From: a virus
Direction: 5' to 3' (one strand)
Length of the DNA: 47,732 bases
Virus record (IMG/VR): IMGVR_UViG_3300043602_000027
Location: 1-47,732 of that record
Each line of letters begins with the position of its first letter. The stretch's first letter is position 1. This document shows, in pieces, positions 2,936-45,762 of this stretch. Under the pieces are notes generated by a model that was not told where the DNA came from, did not search any database, and saw only the letters and a list, made by a program, of their open reading frames with translations. Both the position numbers and the translations under genes were made by a program.

Positions 2936-2936
2936 C

Positions 2937-3140
2937 TTAGAGCCTCTTCAAAAGATTACTCAGATGTAGAAACTCAGGACTAACATACTGCTTGCTGATA
3001 AAATCCCTTAGCTCTGCCTGTTCTTTTCTATTCAATGTTAGCAATTCTGTTATTGGACTGCAATTCTTACAGAGATAAGCAAACTCTGCTGGATATCCCG
3101 ATATCATCCCAGTATCTTGACAGTCTAAACATTTGAACAT
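2937..3140 (-). CDS. small CxxC zinc-finger protein
   Basis: The ORF track gives 2937..3197. I prefer the internal ATG at 3140 (MFKCLDCQDTG...CKNC), because it abuts the stop of 3142..3402 instead of overlapping it by 56 nt. Confidence 0.5.
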   Translation of the reverse strand: MFKCLDCQDTGMISGYPAEFAYLCKNCSPITELLTLNRKEQAELRDFISKQYVSPEFLHLSNLLKRL

Positions 3141-3141
3141 T

Positions 3142-3402
3142 TTAAATTCTCTCAACTGTTCTAATCTCTGTTCCTGCGGGAAGAAAGTATGACTCACTGG
3201 CTTCGCCCGGAATCAAATACTCTACTTCCACTAACTGCCCTGATATCGTTAAAGTCGCCGGAATCTTTTTAATTACTCTGCCTTCTAGCTGTGGAAATCT
3301 ATTAGTTAACTCAGCACAAAGCCGGGAGCCGCGCATCCCTTTATGTGCTCGGACCAGATTTATAGCACACTCGTGCGCCTCTGTCATTAGGCCATTGCCC
3401 AC
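3142..3402 (-). CDS. hypothetical protein (86 aa)
   Basis: ORF track. 16-nt overlap with the upstream helicase gene. Confidence 0.5.
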   Translation of the reverse strand: MGNGLMTEAHECAINLVRAHKGMRGSRLCAELTNRFPQLEGRVIKKIPATLTISGQLVEVEYLIPGEASESYFLPAGTEIRTVERI

Positions 3403-4982
3403 TTTTTACCCCCACGCTTCTCATAGATTGCTGCCACCAAGCCGCGCACTGTATCTGTTTCATCCCACGCAATAACTTCTGAGTCTCCCATTGTTTGCTT
3501 TACTGACTGGCGTTTCTTCTCAATAAGCTCAGTAAACATTTCATCTACTGTGCCTACTGCAATAGGATACTTTGCCTGCACTATGTTGCGCTGCCCTATA
3601 CGCTGCAATCTCTTCTCAGCTTGTTCTTCATTAGCTGGATTCCATTGCCGCTCCATCATAATTAGCACGTTGCAACTATCTTGCAGTCCGTCTAATCCCT
3701 CTCCCGATGCCAGCGTGCCAAGCACTAACACCCTAAGTCTAGGGTCATTACTAAACTTACGCTTGATATTTTCTTTAGTATCGTTGCTAGTTTTCTCAGT
3801 AATCGCTGCCCAGTCACAGTCGTTAGCTTTACATACTGTGTCTAGCTGCTTGATTAAAACATCGCGCGCAATATGGTGATGGAGAAAAACAATACACTTT
3901 TCTCCGGTGTTATCTAAAGTATCCTGAATATTTTCAACTACTGCACTTATCTTAGCGAGCGCCGTTATCTGGCGCATCTTGTTTAAATACGATAAGATAT
4001 GCTGGTGCTGTGCAAAGCCGTTTAGTTCTCCTTCGTTAGTCTCTATGAAATCAACTAACTCGCCTTCGGTCCTGTCATATGCTTTGCGTAAATCTTTATC
4101 AATATCTAAGTATTGAAAATCCCTGATTAAATCAGGCAGGTCTGGCATTACATCTTTCTGCTCAAACCTAATGATGAAATCTTCAGTGTTCCGCCTAAAC
4201 TCTAGCTCATTTCTTAAGCCACCCACTTTATAGCGATAGCCATCCCAATACTTATCTACGTAACGCGCCTCATAGTATGCTTGGCTTGGAAATCTCTCCG
4301 GCTTAAGTAAATTAAGAATAGAGAAATATTCGCCGCTGTGATTCTTAATAGGAGTGCCAGATATCCCCATGACGTAGGGTTTATCACGGCAGATTCTCCT
4401 GACATTATTTGCTCGTTGGCTTGTAGGATTCTTGATATGTTGGCATTCATCAATGATAACTGTCTTAACATTATCGAAAGCAGCATACTTTTCATCGCTT
4501 AGTCTCCGCAGTAAATCATACGAGATGATATACATCTGAGCGTTTGGGAGAATGAAATCACTAGAGCTTTCGATTATCTGAATCGGTAAATCTAGGTCAA
4601 TCCAATTAACGGATTGCTTCATCCACTGGAATGCAAGATTGCTCTTGCAAATCACCATTGCCGGTAGCATCTTTGCCCTGTTAGTTCTCAGTGCAAGAGC
4701 CGCACAGATTGTTTTACCTAATCCCTGTTCGTGAAAGATTCCTACCCGACCACCAGCTTTTAAAATAAACTCCAGTGTATACTTCTGAAATTCAAATGGC
4801 GTATGGTTAGTTAGAAAGCTTTGTAATTTATCAGTTGGTTCAATTCTATCTAACTCTCTAGTAAACATTGAATGTCCGCATTGCAGCTTGACCATAAACT
4901 CCCGGCCAAACTTCAAACGCGAAACTTCAATAGCTACCTTTCCACAGTTTTTACATTTGATATGTTTTGTAACGCTAGCCAT
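3387..4982 (-). CDS. SNF2-family helicase with N-terminal zinc ribbon
   Basis: CKNCGK...CGH ribbon, then helicase motifs HEQGLGKT (I), IIDECQHIKN (II, DExH), ISGTPIKN (III), and C-terminal ERQWNPANEEQAEKRLQRIGQ (V/VI). Confidence 0.85.
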   Translation of the reverse strand: MASVTKHIKCKNCGKVAIEVSRLKFGREFMVKLQCGHSMFTRELDRIEPTDKLQSFLTNHTPFEFQKYTLEFILKAGGRVGIFHEQGLGKTICAALALRTNRAKMLPAMVICKSNLAFQWMKQSVNWIDLDLPIQIIESSSDFILPNAQMYIISYDLLRRLSDEKYAAFDNVKTVIIDECQHIKNPTSQRANNVRRICRDKPYVMGISGTPIKNHSGEYFSILNLLKPERFPSQAYYEARYVDKYWDGYRYKVGGLRNELEFRRNTEDFIIRFEQKDVMPDLPDLIRDFQYLDIDKDLRKAYDRTEGELVDFIETNEGELNGFAQHQHILSYLNKMRQITALAKISAVVENIQDTLDNTGEKCIVFLHHHIARDVLIKQLDTVCKANDCDWAAITEKTSNDTKENIKRKFSNDPRLRVLVLGTLASGEGLDGLQDSCNVLIMMERQWNPANEEQAEKRLQRIGQRNIVQAKYPIAVGTVDEMFTELIEKKRQSVKQTMGDSEVIAWDETDTVRGLVAAIYEKRGGKKWAMA

Positions 4983-5197
4983 TATTTTTTCTTTTCTATG
5001 ATTCTTAATTCACCGTAGATAACAAACTTAGTTCCTTTTTTTAGGTCTATTCTTAAACCAACTATTACTGGATATCCACACTCTGTTACTACTGGCGTAT
5101 CGGATGGAAGAAAATTAATTTCATCTAATAGCTCACCTACTGTGCTTACTTTACCAGCCACAGCTAGCTCGCTTCGCTCGCTCGTTTCGCAGCCCAC
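4982..5197 (-). CDS. hypothetical protein (71 aa)
   Basis: ORF track. Its stop overlaps the helicase start. Confidence 0.5.
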   Translation of the reverse strand: MGCETSERSELAVAGKVSTVGELLDEINFLPSDTPVVTECGYPVIVGLRIDLKKGTKFVIYGELRIIEKKK

Positions 5198-5448
5198 ATC
5201 TTTTTACCGTTTGCCGCTAACTTTTTCCTGCCTGCTGGAGTCTGTGTCCAGTGCGGGCGATGCTTACCATACTTCCCGCCACCCCTAACTTTCTTAGGAG
5301 TCTTACCTTTCGCTTGCTCACTGATAATAGTCTGCGCTAGGTCAGCGTCATATCCCAGTAGGTCAAGCAGCATGTCTCTTTCTTTGTTTATTTCTTCCAG
5401 CCTTACTCTTGCGCCTAGCTTTAGAAGTTCTTGTTTTGATATAGTCAT
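5164..5448 (-). CDS. basic protein with coiled-coil N-terminus and a Lys/Arg/Gly-rich tail (possible DNA binder)
   Basis: ORF track. The tail KTPKKVRGGGKYGKHRPHWTQTPAGRKKLAANGKK suggests nucleic-acid binding. No family assigned. Confidence 0.45.
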   Translation of the reverse strand: MTISKQELLKLGARVRLEEINKERDMLLDLLGYDADLAQTIISEQAKGKTPKKVRGGGKYGKHRPHWTQTPAGRKKLAANGKKMWAAKRASEAS

Positions 5449-5617
5449 AATATTTAATCTGCTCAGTTATTCCCAGTTGGTCTGCTAGTAATGTTGCTAT
5501 AACGAAACTGCTAGAGCAATTATACTGTGTAGCTATTGCATCTACACGTTTCTTAATTGACTCTAGAAGTGTTGCTGTCTTTGGGATACGTTTGAATCCT
5601 CTCGGTTGAATAAACAT
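5363..5617 (-). CDS. possible ribbon-helix-helix (CopG-like) DNA-binding protein
   Basis: IPKTATLLESIKKRVDAIATQYNCSSSFVIATLLADQLGI fits a beta-alpha-alpha RHH pattern. The last ~28 codons overlap 5164..5448 in another frame, so the 3' end is uncertain. Confidence 0.4.
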   Translation of the reverse strand: MFIQPRGFKRIPKTATLLESIKKRVDAIATQYNCSSSFVIATLLADQLGITEQIKYYDYIKTRTSKARRKSKAGRNKQRKRHAA

Positions 5618-5742
5618 CTTCCTGTTCTCTCATCTTTGAACTTAATTCCACTATCTCTTGGTGAATTTGTTTGGCTGCCGTTGTTAATTCAAGATATCTA
5701 CTCAGTAATTGTTTTCTTGTCATCTTTGTTTTGCCCAGTCTG

Positions 5743-6228
5743 TTAGTTTTTATATGCGTTAGTTTTCATTGCCATTAGTTTTTCTTTACTTTCCCGTTCT
5801 TCCTTCATCTCCGGGTAAATCTTCTCTATCATGCAATCGCAGAAACCCATACGCAGCATGGATAGTTGGATTCTCTTAAACAATATTGGATTATGCCGCA
5901 TCATATCTACCAGATAAGAGCCTAGCATAAGCATATCGTTCTTAGTGCTAATCTCAGCAAAGGCGCGCGCGATTTTAATCACTGTTGGCGTTTCAGCTAA
6001 CTTAGCTACTGCCTCTGTTGTCTCCAGTAAATCCTTAGCGAAGAAAGAAAAGATTTTCAGGTTCTCTTCCTCTTCATCCAACTTTACTGGAGAGGTTCCT
6101 TCCATTAGGAAATCTATTAACTCTTCCAGTGAATTAAAATCTTTAATAGTCATCTTATTGCCTATTGCCCAGTTAGTTAAAGTTGCTGCCCTGCCTAGAA
6201 GCCTTTGACACTGTATGCCTGTAGTCAT
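5743..6228 (-). CDS. hypothetical protein
   Basis: ORF track. No SD before 6228, so the real start may be the internal MTIKDFNS (~6153). Confidence 0.5.
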   Translation of the reverse strand: MTTGIQCQRLLGRAATLTNWAIGNKMTIKDFNSLEELIDFLMEGTSPVKLDEEEENLKIFSFFAKDLLETTEAVAKLAETPTVIKIARAFAEISTKNDMLMLGSYLVDMMRHNPILFKRIQLSMLRMGFCDCMIEKIYPEMKEERESKEKLMAMKTNAYKN

Positions 6229-6357
6229 AAAGTGCTGGCGGTCTTGTGGCTATGAACCTAGCTGCGGTTAGTGGATGACACCATCTTAATGAGTCGCCCC
6301 AATAAGACCCACATAACATTTTCTTTAGCTCACGCACTAGACTAGGACAGCATTAAA

Positions 6358-6693
6358 CTATTTCTTAAACTCCCAGTTCTTTGCAAACTCTTCTAAAGTT
6401 TGAAAGTTAGTAGGGGGAAGCTCGTTATCTTCCTCACCTAATTCTTCTATTAACTTCTCTTCTTCTTTCCATTGTTCTTCTTCCTGAGCACGCCACTCAC
6501 TATACTTACGTGATAGCTGGTGGTCAGTCAGACTGCGCGGGTCATTGGCTTTACCTAACCATCTAAGAAAGCATTCGATTCTTTCTTGTGCATCGTGGCC
6601 GTTCTCTTCACTAAAAACTGGCCCGAATGCCCAATCAGATGTAGAGCAATACATTGCCCCTATCTCACCGTCGTATAAGACGCGCACTCCCAT
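6358..6693 (-). CDS. hypothetical protein (111 aa, acidic C-terminus)
   Basis: ORF track. Contains STSDWAFGPVF...FLRWLGK...DPRSLTD. Confidence 0.55.
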   Translation of the reverse strand: MGVRVLYDGEIGAMYCSTSDWAFGPVFSEENGHDAQERIECFLRWLGKANDPRSLTDHQLSRKYSEWRAQEEEQWKEEEKLIEELGEEDNELPPTNFQTLEEFAKNWEFKK

Positions 6694-6694
6694 A

Positions 6695-6814
6695 TTAGTT
6701 TCCTTTCTTTAAACAAGACTTGCACATATATGCTCCATGAGTCGCATGTTTATAGGTCTTTAAATTACGGACCCTTTTTTGTTTCTTGCAAGTATCACAG
6801 ATAAATCGTTTCAT
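6695..6814 (-). CDS. 39-aa zinc-ribbon miniprotein
   Basis: My own translation: MKRFICDTCKKQKRVRNLKTYKHATHGAYMCKSCLKKGN (CxxC...CxxC). ATGA overlap with the stop of 6811..7041, and its stop lies 1 nt before the next ATG. It fills the gap exactly. Confidence 0.5.
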   Translation of the reverse strand: MKRFICDTCKKQKRVRNLKTYKHATHGAYMCKSCLKKGN

Positions 6815-7041
6815 TTCACTTCCTCTAATTCGTTTTCGTAACCTATTACTTCCCCATACTGTTGAATTTCCCCACCAACAACTATGGCGAAACTAATTTC
6901 AGTGAACGGGTTAACTATCAAATCTCCAAGGTTATCATAGTGCTCTAGTGGAGAAAGATTATATCCCCCGTTGATATTACCGTGAAGCCAATAGACTTCA
7001 CCTTTGAACTTTACTTTCTTGTGAATCATTACTAACTTCAT
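6811..7041 (-). CDS. hypothetical protein (76 aa)
   Basis: ORF track. Confidence 0.5.
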   Translation of the reverse strand: MKLVMIHKKVKFKGEVYWLHGNINGGYNLSPLEHYDNLGDLIVNPFTEISFAIVVGGEIQQYGEVIGYENELEEVK

Positions 7042-7220
7042 AAAATTATGCTTACCAAATAGCTGAATTGCCTTTCGGGTTACTTACTATAGTCGGAGAT
7101 TCTTACCATACTAGAAAGCGCGTAACAAGTATGGAGCGCCGAGCCTTAGTCGGTCTTTGAACATTCTATAGTTTTCTCCGTGTATCAGTAAGCATAAACT
7201 TAAACTAACCAGATTATCGT

Positions 7221-7388
7221 CTAGAGCGGCGAATATTCTTTTAGGATATCGTCAAGAGACACGAATAATCCAGTTAATATTACTAGTAGATAAAGGATGC
7301 TGATATGCCATCTTATAGCCGTCAACGCAATGGCTGCGGAGACTATAATAATGGTTACACTTATTTGTTTATGAACCTTGCGATGCAT
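7221..7388 (-). CDS. possible 55-aa membrane protein with two hydrophobic segments
   Basis: My own translation: MHRKVHKQISVTIIIVSAAIALTAIRWHISILYLLVILTGLFVSLDDILKEYSPL. SD is poor, and it lies in an otherwise non-coding 385-bp gap. Confidence 0.3.
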   Translation of the reverse strand: MHRKVHKQISVTIIIVSAAIALTAIRWHISILYLLVILTGLFVSLDDILKEYSPL

Positions 7389-7426
7389 AAACTTATTCGT
7401 GCCATCCTTTACCTACCAGATTCAAA

Positions 7427-7864
7427 CTACTCGATTCCTGAATGCCCGATTAAACTAAACAGTGCTAATTCTGCCGGGACGCCTTCCACTATGAATGGCT
7501 CCCATTCAGCGCGCTCTAGTATGTTAGCTATCACGTATGGTTCTTCTCTCAGCGCGGCCCTTAGATACCTATGATTCCCGTCAACTATGAGATGCGTCCC
7601 GTCTGGCATAGCCAGCACGATAATAGGATTGACTTCGCTAGCGTCTAACGCCAAGAGGCGCACTAGTCTATGCTTCTCGATTCCCCTATTACGTGCAATA
7701 AACTCTGCATGAACTAAATCAACTGGGATGCGATACTTTTGTAGCCCAGAATTTGATTTGATATACTCAGCGATGCGCTCAACTGCGAAAGTAGTCAGTT
7801 CTTTCGTGGAGTCATCTTCGTGAGTAAAAGTAATCTCGTTAAGTCTTAGCTCGCTTATGTGCAT
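7427..7864 (-). CDS. ParB-like nuclease domain (ParB/Srx fold) protein
   Basis: Motif LIVDGNHRYLRA (DGxHR) preceded by NPIIVLAMPDG, typical of ParB N-terminal domain proteins. Confidence 0.65.
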   Translation of the reverse strand: MHISELRLNEITFTHEDDSTKELTTFAVERIAEYIKSNSGLQKYRIPVDLVHAEFIARNRGIEKHRLVRLLALDASEVNPIIVLAMPDGTHLIVDGNHRYLRAALREEPYVIANILERAEWEPFIVEGVPAELALFSLIGHSGIE

Positions 7865-8207
7865 CTCTCTTACCTTTCTTAACTGGCCTATCTTGCCATT
7901 TCAGTAAAGAAGTTTTAATGCCGTTGAACTGCCCTTGAAACTTCTCAAACTCTCTGAGATTATTAAAGTTTATGTGATGTATCGAAACTACCCGCTGGAT
8001 TATCTTATCATCATTCTCGATAGTGGTAGTCTCTACAATTTGTAAATCCCAAGGATACTTTCGTTCCCCCGGTAAATTAAACAAATTCACTTCATGCTTT
8101 CTAGTTTCAACTTTCTCAGTCTTAGTCTTGGGCATCGTTCTTCTCAGTAGAGACTTCCACTGCTTTAGTGTTATCTCAGCAATTTCGTCATAGACTACCA
8201 ACTTCAA
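7839..8207 (-). CDS. hypothetical protein (122 aa)
   Basis: ORF track. Confidence 0.5.
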   Translation of the reverse strand: MKLVVYDEIAEITLKQWKSLLRRTMPKTKTEKVETRKHEVNLFNLPGERKYPWDLQIVETTTIENDDKIIQRVVSIHHINFNNLREFEKFQGQFNGIKTSLLKWQDRPVKKGKRDAHKRAKT

Positions 8208-8208
8208 C

Positions 8209-8997
8209 TTATAGGCCCAACTTTTTCATACGCTCTGCCATTTCTTCCGGTGTGAGCTTATCCCCAAACAAACTAGTTAGCTGCCCCTTTAAATCCAATT
8301 GCACTTTCTTATTCTTTTCTTTCTGGACTAGAGGCGACTTGAGTGCTTTAGGTGCGCCACCTTTGGGGACGTATGTAGAGTCTTCGATTCTTAGCTTATT
8401 CTGTTCGTCTAGGCTAAGAGTCGCAATCATCTTATTAAATTTGATTTGCGCTGCTTGCTTTGCGGTCTTCTTCCGTAGCAATTCAGCTTCTACACTAAAG
8501 ATGTCTTCCTGCGTGGCGATGATAAAGGCGCGCACGTCTTCAACCGACATATCTTTGATATGCTCGACTGTCTGATTAAAGAATTCCTGATACTTATTAG
8601 AATCAGTAGCCTTCAGCCCTACTAGATTAGATTTATTTCTAGCTGCATCTTTCAAGCAGGTAGAGCATAGCTTTAGTGGATTGTTTGGATTCTCTTCCAG
8701 CAACTGTTTAGCATGAGCGCCACATTTACTGCAAGTAGGCCATGTCTGATATTCTGGAACTTCTGGTGGGATTTCTTTACTGGCTGCTAACTCTGAGTCA
8801 TAATGGTCAGAGCAAAGCTTTAGTGTCTTGCCAGCATTAGACTTCAATTCTTTAACTTCAAACTTCGTAAGCTCTTTCTCGCAGATATCGCATCTTATCC
8901 CGAATACTGGAGTAGGCTTTACTTCTGGCGTAATTTCTGGCGCGGCTGGTAGGGGCCGCGCGTATTTTCCTAAAAGATTGGATATATCTATTGCCAT
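8209..8997 (-). CDS. hypothetical protein with two Cys4-type fingers and a basic coiled-coil C-terminus
   Basis: CDICEKEL...CSDH and CSKCGAH...CSTC, then a Lys-rich helical region. Function unknown. Confidence 0.55.
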   Translation of the reverse strand: MAIDISNLLGKYARPLPAAPEITPEVKPTPVFGIRCDICEKELTKFEVKELKSNAGKTLKLCSDHYDSELAASKEIPPEVPEYQTWPTCSKCGAHAKQLLEENPNNPLKLCSTCLKDAARNKSNLVGLKATDSNKYQEFFNQTVEHIKDMSVEDVRAFIIATQEDIFSVEAELLRKKTAKQAAQIKFNKMIATLSLDEQNKLRIEDSTYVPKGGAPKALKSPLVQKEKNKKVQLDLKGQLTSLFGDKLTPEEMAERMKKLGL

Positions 8998-9041
8998 TTG
9001 ATTCCTCTAACTTATCAGAGTTAGTTTGGTTAGTTTGTTAA

Positions 9042-9266
9042 CTAAACGAAATATGCTAATGGTTGACCGACGCCGCACTGTTGTTTGAACCATTGCTTAT
9101 CAACTTCCAGCGCCGTAGCGGTCGCCTCTATTGCGATATGCAATGCCAGCGATGTTGTGAGAGTTGCCATTCTAACTTTACCATCTTCGGTGCGTGCAGC
9201 TAGCTCCTTTCGGATACTAGCTGCAATACCAACCGCGATTTCTTGCATGATTTCTTGTTTGGTCAT
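9042..9266 (-). CDS. hypothetical protein (74 aa)
   Basis: ORF track. Confidence 0.5.
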   Translation of the reverse strand: MTKQEIMQEIAVGIAASIRKELAARTEDGKVRMATLTTSLALHIAIEATATALEVDKQWFKQQCGVGQPLAYFV

Positions 9267-9269
9267 AAA

Positions 9270-9587
9270 CTATTGCCTAGTGAGGTTGGAATGGTCGGAT
9301 AATTCTAGCAATTCTTCCGCTAGCATATCCTTGAGAACTTCGTAAACAGTTCTCGCAGTCTGGTCTTCGCTGAATCCCATCGCGTAAGAAACTGCAATGG
9401 CTTCAAACAACCAAAACTGGATAATCTTGGTGATTCTGTTGGGATTGTTGTCAACTTGCTGAACTGCCGTAACAAACTTCTGAATATCAGTCTTCAGTAA
9501 GCTAACGGTGACTACTTCAGCGTATGCTTTGAGCTTGGGACCGGTAATGTCTTCTGGCTTGCGTGGGCTTAAAAGTGCTTTTTCCAT
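9270..9587 (-). CDS. hypothetical protein (105 aa), first gene downstream of promoter 9812-9841
   Basis: ORF track. SD is GGAGAGACA before the ATG. Confidence 0.55.
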   Translation of the reverse strand: MEKALLSPRKPEDITGPKLKAYAEVVTVSLLKTDIQKFVTAVQQVDNNPNRITKIIQFWLFEAIAVSYAMGFSEDQTARTVYEVLKDMLAEELLELSDHSNLTRQ

Positions 9588-9640
9588 TGTCTCTCCTATA
9601 TCAGTAGGATTGATTAACGTGTAAACTTTCTAACTTATCG

Positions 9641-9724
9641 CCTGCGGGATTCCGGGGATTCCGAGAATATCCCGGTAATTTTCCCGGTGATTTTCCCGGT
9701 ATCCTTCCCCCCGATATTCCCAGC
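9641..9724. repeat. left iteron array (12-bp phase, TTTTCCCGG-type units)
   Basis: Units GAATATCCCGGT (9665), AATTTTCCCGGT (9677), GATTTTCCCGGT (9689), ATCCTTCCCCCC (9701) and GATATTCCCAGC (9713), preceded by two GGGATTCC units (9646-9662). Confidence 0.8.
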
Positions 9725-9775
9725 GAAAGTCTGGCCGGGAGAAGCCTGTAAGTCGTTCTCTGGTCGAGACTTGCA

Positions 9776-9790
9776 CGGCGCGAAGCGCCG
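9776..9790 (-). other. GC hairpin in the leader downstream of promoter 9812-9841
   Basis: CGGCGC-GAA-GCGCCG, a perfect 6-bp stem. Confidence 0.5.
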
Positions 9791-9811
9791 ATGCTCTCTC
9801 TGTCCTTGGGT

Positions 9812-9841
9812 AGTCTAGCATAGGTATGGGCGGGTTGTCAA
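9812..9841 (-). promoter_or_regulatory. sigma70-like promoter (TTGACA-18-TAGACT) reading leftward
   Basis: The minus strand reads TTGACA ACCCGCCCATACCTATGC TAGACT. It shares CCTATGCTAGACT with promoter 10726-10754. Confidence 0.6.
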
Positions 9842-9899
9842 TGCCCTCAAAAGTGGACAGTGTGATTGGGGTGTATATAGTATAGGATAGTTTGAATAT

Positions 9900-9913
9900 A
9901 AAAAAAAAAAAAA
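9900..9913. repeat. A14 homopolymer within an AT-rich stretch (possible DNA unwinding element)
   Basis: 14 consecutive A followed by TAAAAAGAAAGAG. Flanked by the AT-rich TATATAGTATAGGATAGTTTGAATAT. Confidence 0.7.
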
Positions 9914-10059
9914 TAAAAAGAAAGAGACTAACTCACTACTCCCAAAGGCCCGAAAGGGTGTCAGGGGGTATGCCTATAAGGTAGGGGGGAGAGAGAGGGG
10001 CGCTCTAGGAGCCGCGCCTAAGTGCTTGTCTGGCAAGGGGATAGCGACCGCCGTTAATT

Positions 10060-10129
10060 TGAAAATCGGGGGGGAAAATCGCCGGGAAATTCGCCGGGAA
10101 AACCACAGGGAAAACCACCGGGAAAATCT
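10060..10129. repeat. right iteron array, reverse complement of the left array
   Basis: GGGAAAATC (10072), GCCGGGAAATTC (10081), GCCGGGAAAACC (10093), ACAGGGAAAACC (10105) and ACCGGGAAAATC (10117). Exact 12-bp spacing. ACCGGGAAAATC is the reverse complement of GATTTTCCCGGT. Confidence 0.8.
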
Positions 10130-10192
10130 GGATTTTACCCCTATTGTTTGAAAAACTTCCAGTAAATAATTTATCCCAGGAAAGTTAGTGAG

Positions 10193-10232
10193 ATAAAAAA
10201 AATCCCCCTAGCCACTCAAGACTAGGGGGATT
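10193..10232 (-). terminator. intrinsic terminator of gene 10258..10650
   Basis: AATCCCCCTAG-10 nt loop-CTAGGGGGATT (11-bp stem), followed on the minus strand by T8-9. Confidence 0.8.
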
Positions 10233-10257
10233 GTAGTTAGTCGGGTTGGTATGTAGA

Positions 10258-10650
10258 TTAAAACCCGAACTGCGTGCGAATCGCTTTCTCAGCTTCGACC
10301 AGTGAGATGTTCTTCAGGGCTGCGAGCTTCTTCGCCATGCTGGTGATTGCCTTGTCGGGACCAGCAACTGAGGTAAGGAACTGTGCGCGAGCGGCCTGAC
10401 GCGCATTGGCTTCCATGACCTGATTAAACCGGCTGAGAATCCATGCGACCATCAAATCCTGACGGTTCTCAGCAGTGACGGGAATCTCACCCTCTTTTTC
10501 GCCAACTGCGGCAACGGTTTCGTCCGCAATCTGCATCGCGTCTTCCAGTGAAGGAGCCTGCTTTGCGGTATACGGCACTTCCTGTTCCAGTTCGTTCCCG
10601 TCCTTGGTATACTTGACCAAGGTTGTTGCACTCTTCGTTTCGATTGCCAT
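10258..10650 (-). CDS. hypothetical protein (130 aa) in its own promoter-to-terminator unit
   Basis: ORF track. GGAG SD. Near-consensus promoter 10726-10754 upstream and strong hairpin plus T-run 10193-10232 downstream. Visibly GC-richer than the core genome. Confidence 0.65.
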   Translation of the reverse strand: MAIETKSATTLVKYTKDGNELEQEVPYTAKQAPSLEDAMQIADETVAAVGEKEGEIPVTAENRQDLMVAWILSRFNQVMEANARQAARAQFLTSVAGPDKAITSMAKKLAALKNISLVEAEKAIRTQFGF

Positions 10651-10725
10651 TGTTCTACTCTCCTGTTTATCTGACGTTTCCGATTGTTTGGGCTAGCCGT
10701 TCAGCGACTAGCCACCATGAAAAGC

Positions 10726-10754
10726 AGTCTAGCATAGGTGCTCTTGAATGTCAA
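10726..10754 (-). promoter_or_regulatory. sigma70-like promoter (TTGACA-17-TAGACT)
   Basis: The minus strand reads TTGACA TTCAAGAGCACCTATGC TAGACT, about 70 nt upstream of ATG 10650. Confidence 0.65.
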
Positions 10755-10757
10755 CAC

Positions 10758-10895
10758 CTATTTTCGACCAGTGTCCAGATACTTGAAGGCCATTAGGACT
10801 GCGACCAGACCGGCCAGCAAGTAAGCAATAGAGGGAAATGCGGCAAAGAGCGAGAACGCGAGCAATGCCGCTAGACTCCAAAGGTAACTAATCAT
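10758..10895 (-). CDS. possible 45-aa hydrophobic membrane peptide
   Basis: My own translation: MISYLWSLAALLAFSLFAAFPSIAYLLAGLVAVLMAFKYLDTGRK. Promoter-like TTGACT-17-CATACT ends ~7 nt before the ATG, so the mRNA may be leaderless. Confidence 0.35.
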   Translation of the reverse strand: MISYLWSLAALLAFSLFAAFPSIAYLLAGLVAVLMAFKYLDTGRK

Positions 10896-10902
10896 GTATG
10901 CC

Positions 10903-10931
10903 AGTATGAACTAGCTGGTATAAAAAGTCAA
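10903..10931 (-). promoter_or_regulatory. promoter-like element TTGACT-17-CATACT (possible leaderless transcript)
   Basis: The minus strand reads TTGACT TTTTATACCAGCTAGTT CATACT GGCATAC ATG. Confidence 0.35.
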
Positions 10932-10941
10932 GCATAAAAAG

Positions 10942-10994
10942 AAATAAACTGGCGTTTATTTGTTTTGGGAATAAACTAAAATAAACTGGCGTTT
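10942..10994. repeat. two direct copies of AAATAAACTGGCGTTT (10942-10957, 10979-10994) plus a partial copy between
   Basis: Exact 16-mers 37 bp apart, just upstream of promoter-like element 10903-10931. Confidence 0.75.
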
Positions 10995-11083
10995 GTTTGA
11001 AATCTGGGTACATCGCGCGGAGCTACCAACTGGATTCTTTAATTTGAGAAGTTTAATTTAAGACTGGGGCTTGTGAGATAAGG

Positions 11084-11123
11084 GTACCTTGCTGGATAAA
11101 GGTACCTTGCTGAAACAAGGTAG
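11084..11123. repeat. GGTACCTTGCTG x2 direct (11084, 11102) plus inverted half-site CAAGGTA (11117)
   Basis: Read directly: AAGGGTACCTTGCTGGATAAAGGTACCTTGCTGAAACAAGGTA. Confidence 0.7.
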
Positions 11124-11136
11124 TGGGCTGCACAAA

Positions 11137-11191
11137 AGCCCTATAGAGTATCTGTTATCCTTAAATTAAAGGTTGCAGGCTCTATAGGGCT
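11137..11191 (-). terminator. long hairpin (12-bp perfect stem) followed by TTTTG on the minus strand; candidate terminator of the first early unit
   Basis: AGCCCTATAGAG (11137-11148) / CTCTATAGGGCT (11180-11191) with a 31-nt loop holding an inner CCTT/AAGG stem. The large loop makes terminator function uncertain. Confidence 0.4.
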
Positions 11192-11290
11192 AGCTTGTGC
11201 GGGATGTTTTGCGAGCTAGGATATCAGCCTTCCATACTTCCGGCCCTAGCTGTTACTTTATCCCAAGCTTGATATCAAATTCGCCTTGGA

Positions 11291-11482
11291 CTAGTCCGAG
11301 TCAGAGCCACAGCTAGTGATTTCGATGGTTAGCACGTTGCGCCACCTTACAGGCTCATTCCCGAAGCAAGTAATATCGTATGCGTTGTATCCCTTGTATG
11401 TAATCCGCTGCACGCTGATAAGTCTCGCGGTGAATTCATTACGCGGGTTTTCGCCGTCCGTATAGGTGATAAGAATGTCCAT
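11291..11482 (-). CDS. hypothetical protein (63 aa)
   Basis: ORF track. Lies in the GC-richer island. Confidence 0.45.
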   Translation of the reverse strand: MDILITYTDGENPRNEFTARLISVQRITYKGYNAYDITCFGNEPVRWRNVLTIEITSCGSDSD

Positions 11483-11508
11483 TGTTTAAAAGCCTCTCAT
11501 ATTGAATG

Positions 11509-11533
11509 CTAGACGGTTTGCAGTCCCGTCTAG
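11509..11533 (-). other. intercistronic hairpin between the AAA-partner gene and the 63-aa ORF
   Basis: CTAGACGG-9 nt-CCGTCTAG, with no U-run. Confidence 0.45.
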
Positions 11534-11557
11534 CGGTTAGTGTGCCGCGTAGCGGCG

Positions 11558-12430
11558 TTAAGCGTTATCGAGAGTAACTCCGAGTAATTCAAGCTGAGCC
11601 TTAATCCAAGCCTCAGCAGCTTCCAGCTTTTGCCATTGGACATCTAAGCCATATGCGCCCGAAATGTAGATATCCGTATCAGCGGGTTTTTTGTCGTTAT
11701 TGCGTGCGTAATCCGTAAAGCTTCCGCAATTGAATTCTGCTGATTTTTTACCGTCGATACCCATCGTCGATAAAGCTTGAAAGCAAAAACCGCGCATGAA
11801 TGATGGATGGGCTAAGGCATAGCAAATCTGGTCGTATTGCGCGTGATAATCGAGATTTTTTAGCGGTATCTCAATATGGTGAATCAGCCGTGAATTGAAG
11901 TTAGAACCAATGCGATAGATGGCCTTCAATTCAACACGTTTTCCCGCAGTCTCCAGTGCATCTATCAGCGCCATGATTGCGGAACCTTTTGCGATAAGCA
12001 AGGGAACCTCTACCATCGCGGAAGCTACAACGTTCACGACAATTTTAACAATCGGCCCGTTAGAAGACTCGCGCATGTCTTCAGTCTCGAAATAGCTCAT
12101 AACGGATTCAGGCTCACCAGACATAACACGCGCCATGTCGTATCCATAATCGCCCGTCGTATCGAAATACAATTCAGGCTGTAGAACGTGCGATGTAATG
12201 TCCAGCTTGTCAGCTAGTGCCTTGAATTTTTCACGTCCTTCCGGCCATCCCTTAGTCGCCAGCTTTTGAGCCTCAGCCAAGCTGCTAACGTGCGAAAAGC
12301 TACGATTTTTAAGGCTAGCCATTGCGTTATAGTTTGGCTTGCTCACAAAAGACTCTGATATTTTCTCGATAAATTCTGAGAAATTTTCAAAGTAAAGCTG
12401 GCTCAGATTTTCCGTTGTTTCGTATCGCAT
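11558..12430 (-). CDS. partner of the AAA+ ATPase; possibly a degenerate vWA-like (CobT-like) protein
   Basis: Its start overlaps the ATPase stop by 1 nt (position 12430). The segment PIVKIVVNVVASAMV sits where a vWA beta1-MIDAS (hhhhDxSGSM) would be, but the metal ligands are replaced, and IYISGAYG stands in place of hhhTDG. The fold assignment is inference only. Confidence 0.35.
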   Translation of the reverse strand: MRYETTENLSQLYFENFSEFIEKISESFVSKPNYNAMASLKNRSFSHVSSLAEAQKLATKGWPEGREKFKALADKLDITSHVLQPELYFDTTGDYGYDMARVMSGEPESVMSYFETEDMRESSNGPIVKIVVNVVASAMVEVPLLIAKGSAIMALIDALETAGKRVELKAIYRIGSNFNSRLIHHIEIPLKNLDYHAQYDQICYALAHPSFMRGFCFQALSTMGIDGKKSAEFNCGSFTDYARNNDKKPADTDIYISGAYGLDVQWQKLEAAEAWIKAQLELLGVTLDNA

Positions 12431-13650
12431 TATCGAATCCCTGCTTCAAGCTTGCGCCTATCGTCTGGTGAGACTCCGAAAAACAGAACGTCGGAGTAAA
12501 CGTCTTCCAAGCTACAGCCATCGTCCAAGAGTGCTACGCCGTTTTCGATGTTACGTGTTCCGAAACAGGCGCGAATACCTAATTCATTTTGCTTTGCGCG
12601 AAGCTTCCATACAAGCTTTACGAAATCTGGCTGAGTAGCACCTAACTTTTGCTCAAGGTCTGTATCGTAAAGCCACTCGATGCCGACGAAACGATTCAGT
12701 GTCGCCATGTCCAATTGTTTTCTATCGGGATGCATACGATTACCGCCATGTCCGAACGTGTTAGCAGCAGCGATAATTCTGAAATTCTCATGCTTTTTGC
12801 ATGTAACCGTTTTGTTTTCGTCGCCATGGTCAGCAGGGAACGAAACGTAATCGTTAGCGATAAGAGAATTCAGATACGTCAGCGCGCCAGCACTTGCAGA
12901 ATCCATTTCATCTACAAGTAACAATCCGCCGTTCACAAATGCATCGCGTATGACCGTCCAGACTGCTTTCCCGCTTGCGTCAGTGAATCCGAAAAAATCA
13001 GATTTCGATGTTTGCGGGCCTACTGAGATAGGGCAGAATTTCAGACCGAGAATTTCAGCAGCTTTGAATCCAGCAGTAGTCTTACCCGTTCCAGCAGGGC
13101 CGACCAGCAGAACGTTACGCTTGAGCCTGAGATAACGCATAAGCTTTGGCATTTGAACGTGACATGAATCGAAACGCTGTAATTCAGTCCCGTTGCTGTC
13201 GTGAATGACAAGCGTATGCTCAACACGTTGAATGCCGGAAAGCTGCTGTTTCAGCTTGGCAATTTCGGCCAGCATTTCAGCTTTCAAAGCTGTTTCAGTC
13301 TGGCTGATTTCAGCTTGCACGTTTGGCCGGATAATGCTGTAGAGCGATGTCGATTCGCTAGTGATTGGCTGAGGCTGAGTCTTCTCAGGCTGAGGCTTGA
13401 ATTCAGGCTCTGGCAATTGCTGAGTCTGGCTAGGTTTTTCAGTCTCAGACTTTGGCAGTTCTACTCCGCCGAAATTCCGTTCTGATTCAGGGATAAAATC
13501 TGTCTTCGGGCCGGTAGTTCTCAGCCCATTTTTGCAGTAATGCACGCTGCCATCATCGACGTTGTGTTGACGGATGCTGCCCGTCGTGTTTTCCCAAGTG
13601 AAAGACGTTTTGCAGTGAAAGCAAGTATGCACGCGTTTCGTTCTAGCCAT
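12430..13650 (-). CDS. CobS/MoxR-like AAA+ ATPase (AAA_5 type) with N-terminal zinc ribbon and P/Q/E-rich linker
   Basis: Walker A VLLVGPAGTGKTT, Walker B GGLLLVDEMDSA, sensor-1 RIIAAANTFGHGGN, LDMATLNRF. N-terminal CFHC...HYC. First gene of the minus arm. Confidence 0.75.
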   Translation of the reverse strand: MARTKRVHTCFHCKTSFTWENTTGSIRQHNVDDGSVHYCKNGLRTTGPKTDFIPESERNFGGVELPKSETEKPSQTQQLPEPEFKPQPEKTQPQPITSESTSLYSIIRPNVQAEISQTETALKAEMLAEIAKLKQQLSGIQRVEHTLVIHDSNGTELQRFDSCHVQMPKLMRYLRLKRNVLLVGPAGTGKTTAGFKAAEILGLKFCPISVGPQTSKSDFFGFTDASGKAVWTVIRDAFVNGGLLLVDEMDSASAGALTYLNSLIANDYVSFPADHGDENKTVTCKKHENFRIIAAANTFGHGGNRMHPDRKQLDMATLNRFVGIEWLYDTDLEQKLGATQPDFVKLVWKLRAKQNELGIRACFGTRNIENGVALLDDGCSLEDVYSDVLFFGVSPDDRRKLEAGIR

Positions 13651-13705
13651 CTAAAATCTCTCCGTTGTCAGCTTCTAATCCCTAGCTGTTGGGTTGCGCT
13701 GAATG

Positions 13706-13735
13706 CGCTTACAGCTAGCATAAACCCAATGTCAA
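13706..13735 (-). promoter_or_regulatory. weak promoter candidate (TTGACA-18-TAAGCG) for the minus arm
   Basis: The -35 is perfect and the -10 poor. It also contains TATGCTAG, as in the two better promoters. Confidence 0.3.
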
Positions 13736-13787
13736 GCGTTTCACGTTTTTGTTAGCATTTCGTTAATGTTAGTTTAATAACATATAG

Positions 13788-13801
13788 CTTTACCGGTAAA
13801 G
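13788..13801. promoter_or_regulatory. perfect 14-bp palindrome CTTTACCGGTAAAG (operator candidate 1)
   Basis: Read directly. An identical copy lies at 13901-13914. Confidence 0.7.
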
Positions 13802-13810
13802 TACTGGGGT

Positions 13811-13839
13811 ATTCTGTGCAATTGTGATTTATTTCACAA
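13811..13839 (-). promoter_or_regulatory. alternative minus-arm promoter candidate (TTGTGA-17-CAGAAT)
   Basis: The predicted start would fall on palindrome 13788-13801, giving operator-over-TSS geometry. Confidence 0.3.
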
Positions 13840-13900
13840 GCGAGCGCGCCTATAAATAATGTTAAATTAAAATCATATGGTGCTGGGAAAATATCCAATA

Positions 13901-13914
13901 CTTTACCGGTAAAG
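13901..13914. promoter_or_regulatory. perfect 14-bp palindrome CTTTACCGGTAAAG (operator candidate 2)
   Basis: Read directly, 113 bp centre to centre from copy 1. Confidence 0.7.
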
Positions 13915-14340
13915 CTGACGGTAATTTAAACTACCCCATATGCCCAGAATTGTCGGAACCCCCGCGCCTTGGTCGGACCAAAAGCTTAGAGACACTCGCT
14001 ATATCATACTTAGCAATTTAATTCATCGAATATATACAATCAAATAACAATCCTTTTTTCCTATAAAATTTTTATAAATTTCACACTCATACACAGCCAT
14101 AGCGGGCTTCGCCCGCCTATCCCACCAGAGCCGCTAGGAGCCTCTATATAAGGATGCAACCAAGCCGGAATAGTGGACTGGCCTGTTGCCCTCAATCCCC
14201 TTTTAAATCAACGATTAGACCCCTTCTCGCACCTATCAGACGACCAGACCCGTCCCGTTCAGGAGCCGCACAGGGGCAATCCCGACCAGCCACATTCAGC
14301 CTAAAAGTTGCTGAGTATAACTCCCCGCCAATTAACATTA

Positions 14341-14369
14341 ATTGACAAAAAATCCATCTTCGGCTATAA
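14341..14369 (+). promoter_or_regulatory. perfect consensus sigma70 promoter TTGACA-17-TATAAT for the plus arm
   Basis: TTGACA (14341-14346), a 17-nt spacer, then TATAAT (14364-14369). The first ATGs lie ~50 nt downstream. Confidence 0.75.
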
Positions 14370-15067: not shown

Positions 15068-15547
15068 ATGAGGATTACTATCAAGACAGACCACGGCTAT
15101 CTTAGTATTCAACCTAACGGAACGATAGAGTTTCGTGAAGTAGCAGGGGGATGGGAGACATTTAATGTTGAGTCTCTTGACCCTCTTAATATTCAAGTTC
15201 CCCCCACAACTCCACCTGACAGCGGCGGCATGGCACCTCAGCCCACTTCGGACTATGTAGCTTACGTGAAAGATAAATTACTAAAGCAGGGTAAGAATCT
15301 CAGTGGCGCATGTGGTGCATTTGAAGTCACCAAGAATGTCGCATGGGATTTGCGTAATTATGGCTATGGTCTACTGGATAAGCCGTCTGGGAATATGTGC
15401 AGTGGCTATGCTGTAGATATCGTCATGTTGCCAGATGGTAGGGGATGGGATATTCTTGGGGATGGCGGCGGTGCTAACCAACCTCAGTGGAATCAAACTG
15501 AGATAGAGGATGGCGTTGCGAGATATCGCCCGGCGGTGACTCCATGA
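15068..15547 (+). CDS. hypothetical protein (159 aa)
   Basis: ORF track. GGAG SD. No catalytic motif recognised. Confidence 0.55.
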   Translation: MRITIKTDHGYLSIQPNGTIEFREVAGGWETFNVESLDPLNIQVPPTTPPDSGGMAPQPTSDYVAYVKDKLLKQGKNLSGACGAFEVTKNVAWDLRNYGYGLLDKPSGNMCSGYAVDIVMLPDGRGWDILGDGGGANQPQWNQTEIEDGVARYRPAVTP

Positions 15548-15765
15548 ATAATATTGGATGGGCATTAGAACAATTGATTCATGGTAATAAAGTAAGGCGA
15601 GCAGGCTGGAACGGACCTAATCAGTGGCTTGGATTGCAGGTGCCAGATAAGAATAGTAAGATGACTTTGCCGTATATCTATATCTACACAGTGCAGGGAG
15701 ATTTAGTTCCTTGGCTGGCATCCCAGACAGATATTCTTGCAACAGATTGGGAAGCGATTCAGTAA
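15544..15765 (+). CDS. DUF2829-family protein (Tad2-like candidate nucleotide-signal sponge)
   Basis: ALEQLIHGNKVRRAGWNG ... LPYIYIYT ... PWLASQTDILATDWEAI matches the DUF2829 pattern (G-K-h-R-R-x-GWNG, PyI, PW, s-D-hLA-DWE). ATGA coupling to the upstream gene. Confidence 0.7.
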   Translation: MNNIGWALEQLIHGNKVRRAGWNGPNQWLGLQVPDKNSKMTLPYIYIYTVQGDLVPWLASQTDILATDWEAIQ

Positions 15766-16228: not shown

Positions 16229-16237
16229 CAATAAGTG

Positions 16238-45754: not shown

Positions 45755-45762
45755 GGCTATCT

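Follow-up and report, generated by a model that had tools for sequence, protein, structure and literature searches.

The 670-bp gene-free stretch described here, in the 47.7-kb circular genome of an uncultured phage, is tentatively read as a bidirectional replication origin of SaPI-like layout, which would double as the control region of an early/DNA-metabolism operon and whose promoters would activate or prime initiation; this is the likeliest of the readings considered. A replication origin fits the layout best, short of proof. Judged from comparison with its relatives, the region is a real, selected cis-acting element. Leftward genes lie on both sides of the gap (a 130-aa gene upstream and a 105-aa gene downstream), which is not a point of divergence. 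The window is the whole stretch of DNA that was analysed (47,732 nt), and the features of the gap are listed below in its coordinates, with lineage labels (L129 and so on) for relatives.

9646..9663, plus strand: 9-bp GGGATTCCG repeat, present twice, bordering the left array on its outer side (TRF: period 9, 2 copies, 100% match)
9662..9724, minus strand: left array of iterons, with five units of 12 bp whose minus strand is GGGAAAATYACC-like (repeat finder, TRF)
9776..9790, no strand: GC hairpin CGGCGCGAAGCGCCG, close to where the leftward transcript would begin; matched in L145 by a GC hairpin in the equivalent relative position
9793..9807, minus strand: CT-rich tract, GGACAGAGAGAG on the minus strand, mirroring the right-hand G/GA tract
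9812..9841, minus strand: P_left, a predicted extended -10 promoter (TTGACA-18-(TG)TAGACT), conserved in four spanning loci
9843..9864, no strand: conserved block GCCCTCAAAAGTGGACAGTGTG (alignment), an imperfect palindrome between and overlapping both -35 hexamers
9854..9881, plus strand: P_right, promoter-like (TGGACA-16-TATAGT), with a predicted start near 9888 that would read into the A-tract
9900..9925, plus strand: A14 followed by TAAAAAGAAAGA, a homopolymeric dA:dT block and candidate DNA unwinding element at the centre of the dyad
9927..9943, plus strand: A/C-rich motif ACTAACTCACTACTCCC; relatives have comparable CA-rich motifs after the A-run
9947..9960, plus strand: small hairpin GGCCC-GAAA-GGGTG, with a GTCCnCAAAAGnGGAC-type palindrome at this place in relatives
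9964..10001, plus strand: G-rich/GA tract that includes G5, with G-quadruplex and R-loop potential
9999..10018, plus strand: GC hairpin GGCGC-N10-GCGCC; L134 has GCGCC-N6-GGCGC in the equivalent relative place
10060..10131, plus strand: right iteron array, five 12-bp GGGAAAAYCRCC units and one 13-bp-spaced unit (TRF score 72)
10120..10141, no strand: GGGAAAATCT and GGATTTTACCCC placed head-to-head on the outer side of the right array (from sequence)
10201..10232, minus strand: intrinsic terminator of the leftward 130-aa gene, a 13-bp stem followed by T8

The two arrays carry the argument. An earlier note on this DNA had described five left units and five to six right units in 12-bp phase, the arrays being mutually inverted, and this description holds. 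In the frame of that note the left units lie at 9665-9676, 9677-9688, 9689-9700 (GATTTTCCCGGT), 9701-9712 and 9713-9724, while the right units at 10072-10131 are GGGAAAATCGCC, GGGAAATTCGCC, GGGAAAACCACA, GGGAAAACCACC and GGGAAAATCTGG, with a sixth, at 13-bp spacing, at 10060-10071. The best left unit recurs in exact reverse complement as ACCGGGAAAATC (10117-10128), and TRF recovers the two GGGATTCCG units that were reported ahead of the left array. The other elements named in the note, namely the leftward promoter (9841..9812), the GC hairpin at 9776-9790, the A14 run at 9900-9913 and the G/GA tract, were found as well, and P_right and the terminator at 10201-10232 are additions to them. The note had also set aside the ORF at 9630..9821 as an artefact made of translated repeats. 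A plus-strand ORF at 10026..10151 reads ENRREIRRENHRENHREN, and because the two ORFs translate the repeats in mirror image, both are considered artefacts. As paired by the repeat finder, the arrays form inverted 58-nt arms (9664-9721 and 10072-10129) that are 76% complementary with 350 nt between them, and their inner edges are separated by 335-350 bp. A two-unit pattern has five matches in the window, all within the arrays, against 0.00 expected from 100 shuffles, and no further cluster of 12-mers occurs anywhere else in the genome.

Relatives were collected through homologues (49-69% identical) of the neighbouring 130-aa gene. Across 11 diverged lineages the order of elements is constant: terminator, array, GC hairpin, G tract, hairpin, poly-A, promoters and inverted array. 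The repeats have a period of 11 or 12 bp (24 in L131 and L133) with four to six units per array, and the poly-A measures 9-42 nt. The repeat unit itself, of 11-12 bp, is lineage-specific (GGGAAAAYC, GGGTAAYC, TAGAATCT, CTGATWTGAT, AGGCAGGA, GACGTAGATA, GGTTCGAnATGGGCGCGA, GAGAACGGGGA and others). Four spanning loci with inverted arms are available (the window, L134, L144 and L145), in which the gap from arm to arm is 350, 350, 356 and 364 nt even though the interior is no longer alignable, the arms are 72-83% complementary, and the centre of the homopolymer block lies 5-13.5 bp off the arm midpoint in all four. Over eight lineages, the interval from the A-run to the right array has a column identity of 49%, which is compositional only and yields no meaningful alignment.

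The contigs of most relatives stop at the homopolymer, and spanning contigs exist for four lineages. At the contigs that stop, the length of the run varies and error-like mismatches appear just beyond it, and for these reasons the contig ends are regarded as homopolymer artefacts: the long homopolymer breaks most short-read assemblies of these phages, so that relatives are recovered as fragments ending at the A-run. Samples that contain this phage include ERZ27267694, ERZ27267964, SRR7007031 and JGI 3300018083. A physical genome end at the A-tract was rejected on the same run-length variation and post-run mismatches, together with the spanning contigs. A search for DNA similarity to the region among GenBank phages and PLSDB plasmids returned zero matches, and neither relatives of the flanking proteins nor the core-promoter/A-run pattern were found in IMG/VR and GTDB genomes. 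A scan of IMG/VR for iteron pairs gave mainly single matches, which were taken as chance, and the Microcystis phage Mel-JY34, a distant isolate, lacks such an architecture. There is no sign of a plasmid or prophage lifestyle, and since neither GTDB genomes nor PLSDB hold prophage or plasmid relatives, the phage looks lytic. An attP site was considered and rejected, as the ORFs scanned yielded no integrase and neither a tRNA nor prophage copies turned up.

Within the gap, the best-conserved block in the alignment of the four loci comprises both promoter elements. P_left has a predicted start near 9805 and serves the operon that begins with the 105-aa gene, and the left array lies inside the 5' leader of this operon. 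P_right stands back-to-back with it; its -35 element GGACAGTG and a TTATAG-like -10 are kept in the four loci, its -7 T is missing in two of the four lineages, and in L147 a TATAAT abuts the A-run. A possible alternative role for the -35 block of P_right is that of an activator or UP site, positioned at -50 to -60 relative to P_left. The palindrome at 9843..9864 could, from its sequence, be an operator or activator site, and relatives have a similar palindrome downstream of the A-run. A near copy of P_left occurs at 10754..10726. The terminator, read 10232..10201, marks the right boundary of the element and has equivalents in all relatives. For the rightward RNA, neither a terminator nor a processing site was detected. 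Both predicted RNAs exceed shuffled sequences in folding stability (z = -2.5 and -3.5), and the only Rfam match, NsiR1 on the terminator hairpin, reaches 20.7 bits where the gathering score is 39.

At the centre of the dyad, the dA:dT block sits 150-180 bp from each array, and the 30-bp and 50-bp windows in which the duplex is less stable than anywhere else in the genome start at 9887 and 9874, respectively. The composition of the strands is also arranged around the promoters: the plus strand is purine-rich to their right and the minus strand to their left. Every relative has a G tract at the position of 9964..10001 (G6AG6 in L129), with a canonical G4 motif there in L133, L134, L144, L145 and L147, and in L144 and L145 the tract equivalent to 9793..9807 contains G7. 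Three of the five G4 motifs in the genome are inside the region.

No Rep-like or initiator gene adjoins the region, where the neighbours are orphan proteins in which no DNA-binding domain was detected. The 130-aa upstream protein is modelled as a beta-hairpin and long-helix fold (pLDDT 89) for which no fold match was found in the PDB or BFVD. The 105-aa first gene has no homologue and no PDB match, nor does it show detectable similarity to the gene at the equivalent position in L134. Scans of the neighbouring and most other ORFs against Pfam, PHROGs and NCBIfam gave no HTH, RHH, ParA/ParM, integrase, recombinase, repressor or primase, and no TubZ-like gene or transposase was seen in the ORFs scanned. 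The ParB-like, RHH-like (84 aa, 5363-5617) and zinc-ribbon proteins that had been suggested as binders could not be linked to the arrays. The phage does encode a family A polymerase (PolA) and, about 14 kb from the region, a DUF3987 helicase, the predicted structure of which matches MCM subunits (E 3e-7, probability 1.0). The C-terminal winged-helix region of this helicase (residues 366-416) is its fastest-evolving part, with a mean pairwise identity of 48% against 78% for the remainder. DUF3987 has been described as a predicted mobile-element helicase analogous to DUF927, the family of the active staphylococcal genomic-island helicase (PMC5862659).

How such an origin might work can be outlined as follows. 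A lineage-specific DNA-binding protein would coat both arrays, each offering five to six asymmetric sites of 11-12 bp at about one per helical turn, and two oriented assemblies would face each other some 150-180 bp on either side of the centre; the geometry is read directly from the arrays and the binding is presumed. Melting is proposed at the central dA:dT block, where the duplex is weaker than anywhere else in the genome. From the two back-to-back sigma-70-type promoters, transcription would run outward and drive negative supercoiling into the A-tract. Because the non-template strand is purine- and G-rich on both sides, persistent RNA-DNA hybrids would be favoured, and these could serve as leading-strand primers for the family A polymerase; no primase gene was recognised in the genome. 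The MCM-like DUF3987 helicase would load on both sides of the centre and may itself read the arrays through its fast-evolving C-terminal winged helix, as SaPI Rep does. The left array is part of the transcribed leader, and protein bound to it would in addition reduce expression of the leftward operon. A bolder form of the proposal, which we regard as doubtful, is that of a bacterial-virus origin with archaeal, eukaryotic and mitochondrial logic, in which the lineage-specific inverted arrays would load two MCM-like DUF3987 hexamers head-to-head around the dA:dT block. Host RNA polymerase, acting at the promoters within the origin, would produce G-rich transcripts, and their lasting R-loops or G-quadruplex hybrids, like those of mitochondrial LSP-CSBII, would prime the family A polymerase. 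In that form, since the hybrids would prime the polymerase, a primase would be unnecessary for leading-strand initiation.

Several observations count against an origin. Cumulative GC skew, a check that the earlier note had proposed, shows no clear switch at the gap: its slope changes near 9 kb, it is flat over 9-15 kb, and its global minimum, at 14835, falls outside the region and adjoins a second AT-rich gap (13651-14341) with palindromes of its own. The helicase gene is distant, no DnaA box occurs within the region, P_right is without its -7 T in two of the four lineages, and neither a terminator nor a processing site was detected for the predicted rightward RNA. Moreover, the distance from array to melting site exceeds that in the SaPI and lambda origins. 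The GC3 skew is +0.20 on the left side of the gap and -0.04 on the right, a heterogeneity that cannot be attributed to fork direction because a block at 40.9-47.2 kb is also low (+0.03).

The region may instead be purely regulatory, which is the main alternative to an origin although we consider it on the unlikely side. A lineage-specific phage repressor would coat the arrays, perhaps closing a loop of about 470 bp, and would turn off the strong early promoter P_left, and P_right with it, at the early-to-middle switch, with the left array acting as a roadblock in the leader and with no role in replication. The best-conserved promoter pair is indeed bracketed by the arrays, and the left array separates P_left from the first gene, ending only 18-23 nt ahead of the start codon in L144 and L145. 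In addition, each lineage has its own first one or two genes past the left array, the pattern that a specificity partner should show, and lineage-specific pairs of operator and repressor are normal in phage immunity regions. The ParR/parC arrays of plasmid R1 act as operators as well (PMC2241845). However, the geometric centre is the A-tract, from which the promoters lie 50-90 bp off to one side, and the arrays are remote from the core promoters, beginning 85 and 170 nt away from the predicted starts of transcription. A stiff homopolymer would be unfavourable at the apex of a loop, and repression gives no obvious role to the long, conserved run of dA:dT, to the G tracts or to the hairpins. Moreover, no HTH or RHH domain was detected in the neighbouring proteins.

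A centromere-like partition site of the R1 parC or TubR-tubC type, in which a small protein coats the arrays and a filament or ATPase segregates or positions the phage DNA, is improbable. The earlier note had left open whether the layout was that of an origin or of a parC-like site. Of these, the origin has gained indirect support from the central A-tract, the least stable duplex, the SaPI-like layout and the DUF3987 helicase, while parC fails on orientation, on spacing and on the lack of a ParM/ParA partner. R1 parC has two sets of five 11-bp iterons around the par promoter, which serve as operators (PMC2241845), and the 5-6 and 5 units of 11-12 bp around a promoter resemble it. Lineage-specific repeats are typical of incompatibility determinants, and there is a weak match to a ParB-like nuclease domain at 7427-7864 (E 0.0045). 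In R1, however, all repeats are direct, the spacer is 39 bp and parM-parR follows directly, whereas the phage arrays are inverted, with a spacer of 350-364 bp, and come without a recognisable ParR. ParM, ParA, TubZ-like and RHH-adaptor genes are absent from the ORFs scanned, and the lack of an integrase, a repressor and prophage or plasmid relatives in GTDB genomes or PLSDB likewise speaks against partition.

We give equally little credence to a packaging site of pac or cos type, where oligomers of the small terminase would bind the repeats and the cut would fall in the central A-tract or G-rich region, as in P1 pac or SPP1 pacL-pacC-pacR. This reading would account for a central site flanked by two sets of repeats, for a lineage-variable specificity element and for the contigs that stop at the homopolymer. 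The homopolymer itself explains those ends, however, and in four lineages the run is crossed by contigs. Known pac and cos sites are located in or beside terS, whereas 4-6 kb separate the site considered here from TerL (16235-17866) and from the point where the late operon starts. It is very improbable that the repeats act at the RNA level, with the rightward non-coding RNA serving as a decoy that titrates an RNA-binding protein away from its other target, the leader of the leftward mRNA. With inverted arrays and divergent promoters, the two predicted transcripts do carry repeats of the same sense (GGGAAAAUC...), and both are more stable than shuffled sequences, as noted above. Nevertheless, a period of 11-12 nt is that of the DNA helix and unlike any known RNA-binding periodicity, neither conserved RNA structure nor alignable sequence was found across lineages, the Rfam match is below threshold, and no terminator was detected for the rightward RNA. 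Finally, an invertible promoter switch or MITE-like insertion, suggested by a promoter-bearing segment of about 350 bp between inverted arms that would be the terminal inverted repeats of a 470-bp segment, was rejected as scarcely credible, given that orientation is constant in all near-identical spanning contigs and in the four spanning lineages, that the arms are only 72-83% complementary and internally repetitive, that synteny of the position holds throughout the lineages although each has arms of its own, and that recombinase and transposase are absent from the ORFs scanned.

Whatever its role, the region is a composite cis element of precise geometry that is conserved across a clade of soil and sediment phages and is easily recognised by its inverted 11-12-bp arrays, central poly-A of up to 42 nt, G tracts and back-to-back promoters. 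To our knowledge, replication origins are known for very few phages and for almost no uncultured lineages. If the region is an origin, it would provide a sequence signature for locating origins in the DUF3987/PolA group of phages, a natural set of orthogonal pairs of iteron and reader, and a tractable bacterial model of helicase double loading and R-loop priming.

Among known systems, the SaPI/PICI origins come closest. SaPI origins have 6-12 iterons in total that point in opposite directions on either side of an AT-rich centre and are read by the winged helix of a self-loading helicase (Rep, DUF927) (PMC9371898). Their iteron sets differ between SaPIs, and binding of Rep has been tested on the origins of other SaPIs as a control for specificity (PMC9371898). 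The phage element shares the opposed iterons around an AT-rich centre (in the window, L134, L144 and L145) and their element-specific sequence, and the phage encodes a related type of helicase (DUF3987) with an MCM-like predicted fold and a variable winged helix. It differs in that SaPI iterons are penta- or hexanucleotides (5-6 bp) and the origin lies directly 3' of rep, whereas the phage units are 11-12 bp long and the helicase gene is about 14 kb away. In addition, the phage arrays stand 150-180 bp from a centre that contains two promoters, 9-42 bp of dA:dT and G-rich tracts. With the iteron-type origins of ori-lambda, P1 oriR, RK2 and R6K, the region has in common direct repeats at whole helical turns beside an easily melted, AT-rich unwinding element, as well as lineage-variable specificity. 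Those origins have one-sided arrays, a cognate initiator gene either next to the origin or enclosing it and, in many cases, DnaA boxes, whereas the phage has two inverted arrays and neither of the latter.

The transcribed centre has parallels of a different kind. ColE1 and lambda are established cases of priming from persistent hybrids and of origin activation by transcription (PMC5043065). The phage region resembles these, as well as the T7, T4 and mitochondrial origins, in the promoter directly upstream of a meltable AT block, the G-rich non-template strand and the family A polymerase. The T7 primary origin, T4 ori(uvsY) and ori(34), and mitochondrial LSP-CSBII are all transcription-primed or transcription-activated. 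The T7, T4, ColE1 and mitochondrial origins have neither flanking iteron arrays nor dyad symmetry and the lambda iterons are one-sided; R-loop priming in the phage is putative. Inverted initiator sites around an A/T tract are found in archaeal oriC (inverted ORB elements around the DUE), HSV oriS and the SV40 core origin, and the HSV and SV40 origins lie between divergent promoters. These origins belong to other domains of life and have unrelated initiators, and the likeness is one of architecture only: as in the phage element, inverted sites around an A/T tract would suit the head-to-head loading of two helicase hexamers.

The gene-free gap at 9590-10257 is confirmed as a real, conserved and composite feature, and every element listed in the earlier note is present in the window sequence. 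Features of the gap and its right-hand neighbour, and two genes elsewhere in the genome, are:

9662-9724: left array, five 12-bp units with two GGGATTCCG units before it
9841..9812, minus strand: leftward promoter P_left, back-to-back with P_right
9854-9881, plus strand: promoter-like site P_right, TGGACA-16-TATAGT
10232..10201, minus strand: terminator of the upstream 130-aa gene, hairpin and T8
10754..10726, minus strand: the 130-aa gene's own promoter, TTGACA-17-TATGCTAGACT, a near copy of P_left
41733-42983, minus strand: DUF3987 protein (family match), 416 aa, adjoining the polymerase gene
42999-45515, minus strand: DNA polymerase, a fused UDG-like domain, 3'-5' exonuclease and PolA, adjoining the DUF3987 gene

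The right array (10060-10131) had been read as five to six units in exact 12-bp phase; five keep it, but the sixth is spaced by 13 bp and falls out of phase. The two arrays are indeed mutually inverted, forming reverse-complement 58-nt arms that are 76% complementary, with 350 nt between them. A two-unit pattern has five matches in the window, all within the arrays, versus 0.00 expected, and no further clusters of the 12-bp unit were found elsewhere in the genome. ORF 9630..9821, previously set aside as an artefact, merely translates the repeats, as does a mirror-image plus-strand ORF (10026..10151). Both genes flanking the gap are leftward, and the 130-aa gene, with its own promoter and terminator, looks like a single-gene transcription unit.

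The -35 hexamers of P_left and P_right lie 12 bp apart. The predicted rightward transcript starts near 9888 and runs through the A14 run, a CA-rich motif, a small GAAA hairpin, the G/GA tract, a GC hairpin and the right array, while the predicted leftward transcript starts near 9805 and runs through a GA-rich tract, a GC hairpin and the left array, which lies within the leader of a DNA-metabolism operon. The matching order of parts makes the region pseudo-symmetric; on both sides the outward-reading strand is purine-rich, and the iterons have the same sense on each. Other repeats occur in the genome: a gene-poor gap at 10880-11290 holds AATAAACTGGCGTTT(A/G)TTTG twice, two tandem copies of the 18-bp GATAAAGGTACCTTGCTG (11077-11112) and a long hairpin (~11131-11200), and short tandem repeats with a common GTTAGTTT core lie in two short spaces between genes of the leftward operon (5742-5783 and 9020-9037).

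The 130-aa gene has 13 homologues (49-69% identity), whereas no homologue was found for the 105-aa gene downstream. The arrays persist in close relatives, both being unchanged in near-identical contigs (97.8-100%), among which the A-run (9900-9913 in the window; L001-L008) is the sole variation, at 13-17 nt. Diverged lineages were compared via the DNA downstream of the 130-aa homologue. Conservation there is of layout, not of sequence: ten lineages keep the order terminator, direct-repeat array, GC hairpin, G-rich tract (G6AG6 in L129), small palindrome or hairpin, CA-rich motif and A-run (leftward from the gene, window orientation), but the unit sequence differs in every one. Their arrays have 4-6 units with a period of 11 or 12 bp, except for one lineage at 24 bp, and the A-run ranges from 9 to 42 nt. 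Three diverged lineages span the whole region (L134, L144 and L145); each carries P_left, a block resembling P_right and, in opposite orientation to the first array, a second one. The region is absent from the loci of two more distant homologues, L142 and L143 (51% identity). Most short-read contigs of this phage group end at the homopolymer. Two near-identical contigs ending at the A-run carry error-like mismatches just beyond it, which, together with the variable run length, identifies the stops as assembly breaks and rules out genome ends. In the related contig L147, a second homopolymer leftward of the promoters (T12 in window orientation, A12 in the leftward RNA) makes the region even more symmetric; once the contig is reverse-complemented to match the window, this run falls within its first 30 nt, where the contig ends. 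Among IMG/VR contigs, two adjacent GGGAAA..C.C.GGGAAA..C matches occur solely in L014 (3300031379_000001; 6042-6086), where they may be an unrelated array.

Geometry is also maintained. The four loci that span the region have 350, 350, 356 and 364 nt between the arms, and the interior, promoter block excepted, has diverged beyond alignment. The centre of the homopolymer block is 5-13.5 bp from the arm midpoint in all four, always displaced toward the 130-aa gene, and relative to that midpoint the promoters are offset by 50-90 bp on one side. Nearest-neighbour free energies place the weakest duplex of the entire genome here, with the least stable 30-bp segment beginning at 9887 and the least stable 50-bp segment at 9874. 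Two of the three G-quadruplex motifs in the genome (loops ≤12 nt) are the two arrays; loops ≤15 nt add the central G tract, placing three of five within the region, and the equivalent tract in five relatives is a canonical G4 motif.

The window, assembled as a complete circle with a 24-nt terminal overlap, comes from an uncultured tailed phage and has leftward genes at 1-13650 and 40890-47732 and rightward genes at 14342-40852. It encodes a UDG-exonuclease-PolA fusion, an SNF2 helicase, a PD-(D/E)XK nuclease, a DUF3987 helicase and a T4-type large terminase; no tRNA was found in it, and no integrase, repressor or primase was recognised among the ORFs scanned. Just upstream of the terminase gene, a 73-aa protein (15544-15765, plus strand) gave a Pfam match (E 9e-24) to the Tad2-like domain of Thoeris anti-defence, and a protein at 40890-41642 (minus strand) terminates in a PEP-CTERM sorting motif (E 3e-7), a hint that the host may possess an exosortase system. 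GenBank phages gave no DNA match to the window, and its polymerase shares 28% identity with the Microcystis phage Mel-JY34 enzyme. The Mel-JY34 genome (L148) has a ~35-bp inverted repeat around an AT-rich centre with a T9 run (44120-44290). This repeat lies immediately upstream of a promoter-like hexamer (TTGACA), close to the right end of the record, and may be a simpler analogue of the window element.

A candidate reader of the iterons is the DUF3987 protein. Its family is predicted to comprise helicases of mobile elements and is likened to DUF927, to which a helicase of a staphylococcal genomic island with demonstrated activity belongs (PMC5862659). The AlphaFold model of the phage protein (pLDDT 76) matches MCM subunits (E 3e-7, probability 1.0) over the AAA+ core and C-terminal winged helix. 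In a set of eight sequences sharing 70-81% identity, mean pairwise identity is 48% over residues 381-416 (wing and last helix), versus 78% over residues 1-365; such a variable wing is consistent with lineage-specific DNA recognition. The 130-aa neighbour gave a confident model with no fold match.

Several points stand against an origin. The element is not singled out by cumulative GC skew, which forms a plateau from ~9 to 15 kb and has its minimum at 14835. GC3 skew is +0.20 left of the gap and -0.04 right of it, but the 40.9-47.2 kb block is low as well (+0.03), and fork direction therefore cannot be read cleanly from this difference. No initiator gene adjoins the element, no DnaA box was found in the region, and P_right is imperfect in two of the four spanning lineages. 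A perfect 14-bp palindrome, CTTTACCGGTAAAG, occurs twice (13788-13801 and 13901-13914, 113 bp apart; 0.14 expected by chance) in the AT-rich divergent early/late intergenic region beside the skew minimum, and the pair looks like operators. In duplex stability that gap ranks second lowest in the genome, and this, with its nearness to the minimum, makes it a rival origin location.

The main rival explanation, a purely regulatory complex, would account for the promoters and the variable first genes but leaves the centred homopolymer and G tracts unexplained, and we consider it unlikely. A centromere like R1 parC (PMC2241845) agrees in unit number and period, yet its orientation, spacing and partner genes do not match, making it improbable; equally so is a pac/cos packaging site, given how far the element lies from the terminase genes. 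An RNA-level decoy is very improbable, since the repeat period is DNA-like and no conserved RNA structure was found. An inverton or MITE is scarcely credible because the orientation is constant in all contigs, contradicting a flip.

The best supported of the readings considered is a SaPI-like replication origin with transcription-activated or R-loop-primed logic, a putative function that we hold tentatively, at somewhat less than an even chance. Inverted, lineage-specific, asymmetric iterons would here combine with an equidistant dA:dT block and a self-loading MCM/Rep-type helicase, and the embedded promoters with G-rich non-template strands would allow transcription-activated or R-loop-primed initiation. 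Such initiation is attractive because no recognisable primase turned up among the ORFs scanned. An additional operator role is likely, since the left array lies in an operon leader, and is compatible with an origin. Transcription-activated or R-loop-primed origins are known from T7, T4 and mitochondrial LSP-CSBII. ColE1 and lambda supply further examples of such origins (PMC5043065). Within the collections and literature searched, no described origin has the same layout, and the element appears to be a variant of the iteron-plus-unwinding-element arrangement. Its combination of inverted iterons, weakest-duplex dA:dT block and MCM/Rep-type helicase is closest to the SaPI origin, where oppositely pointing iterons likewise flank an AT-rich centre, the presumed loading site of two Rep hexamers (PMC9371898).
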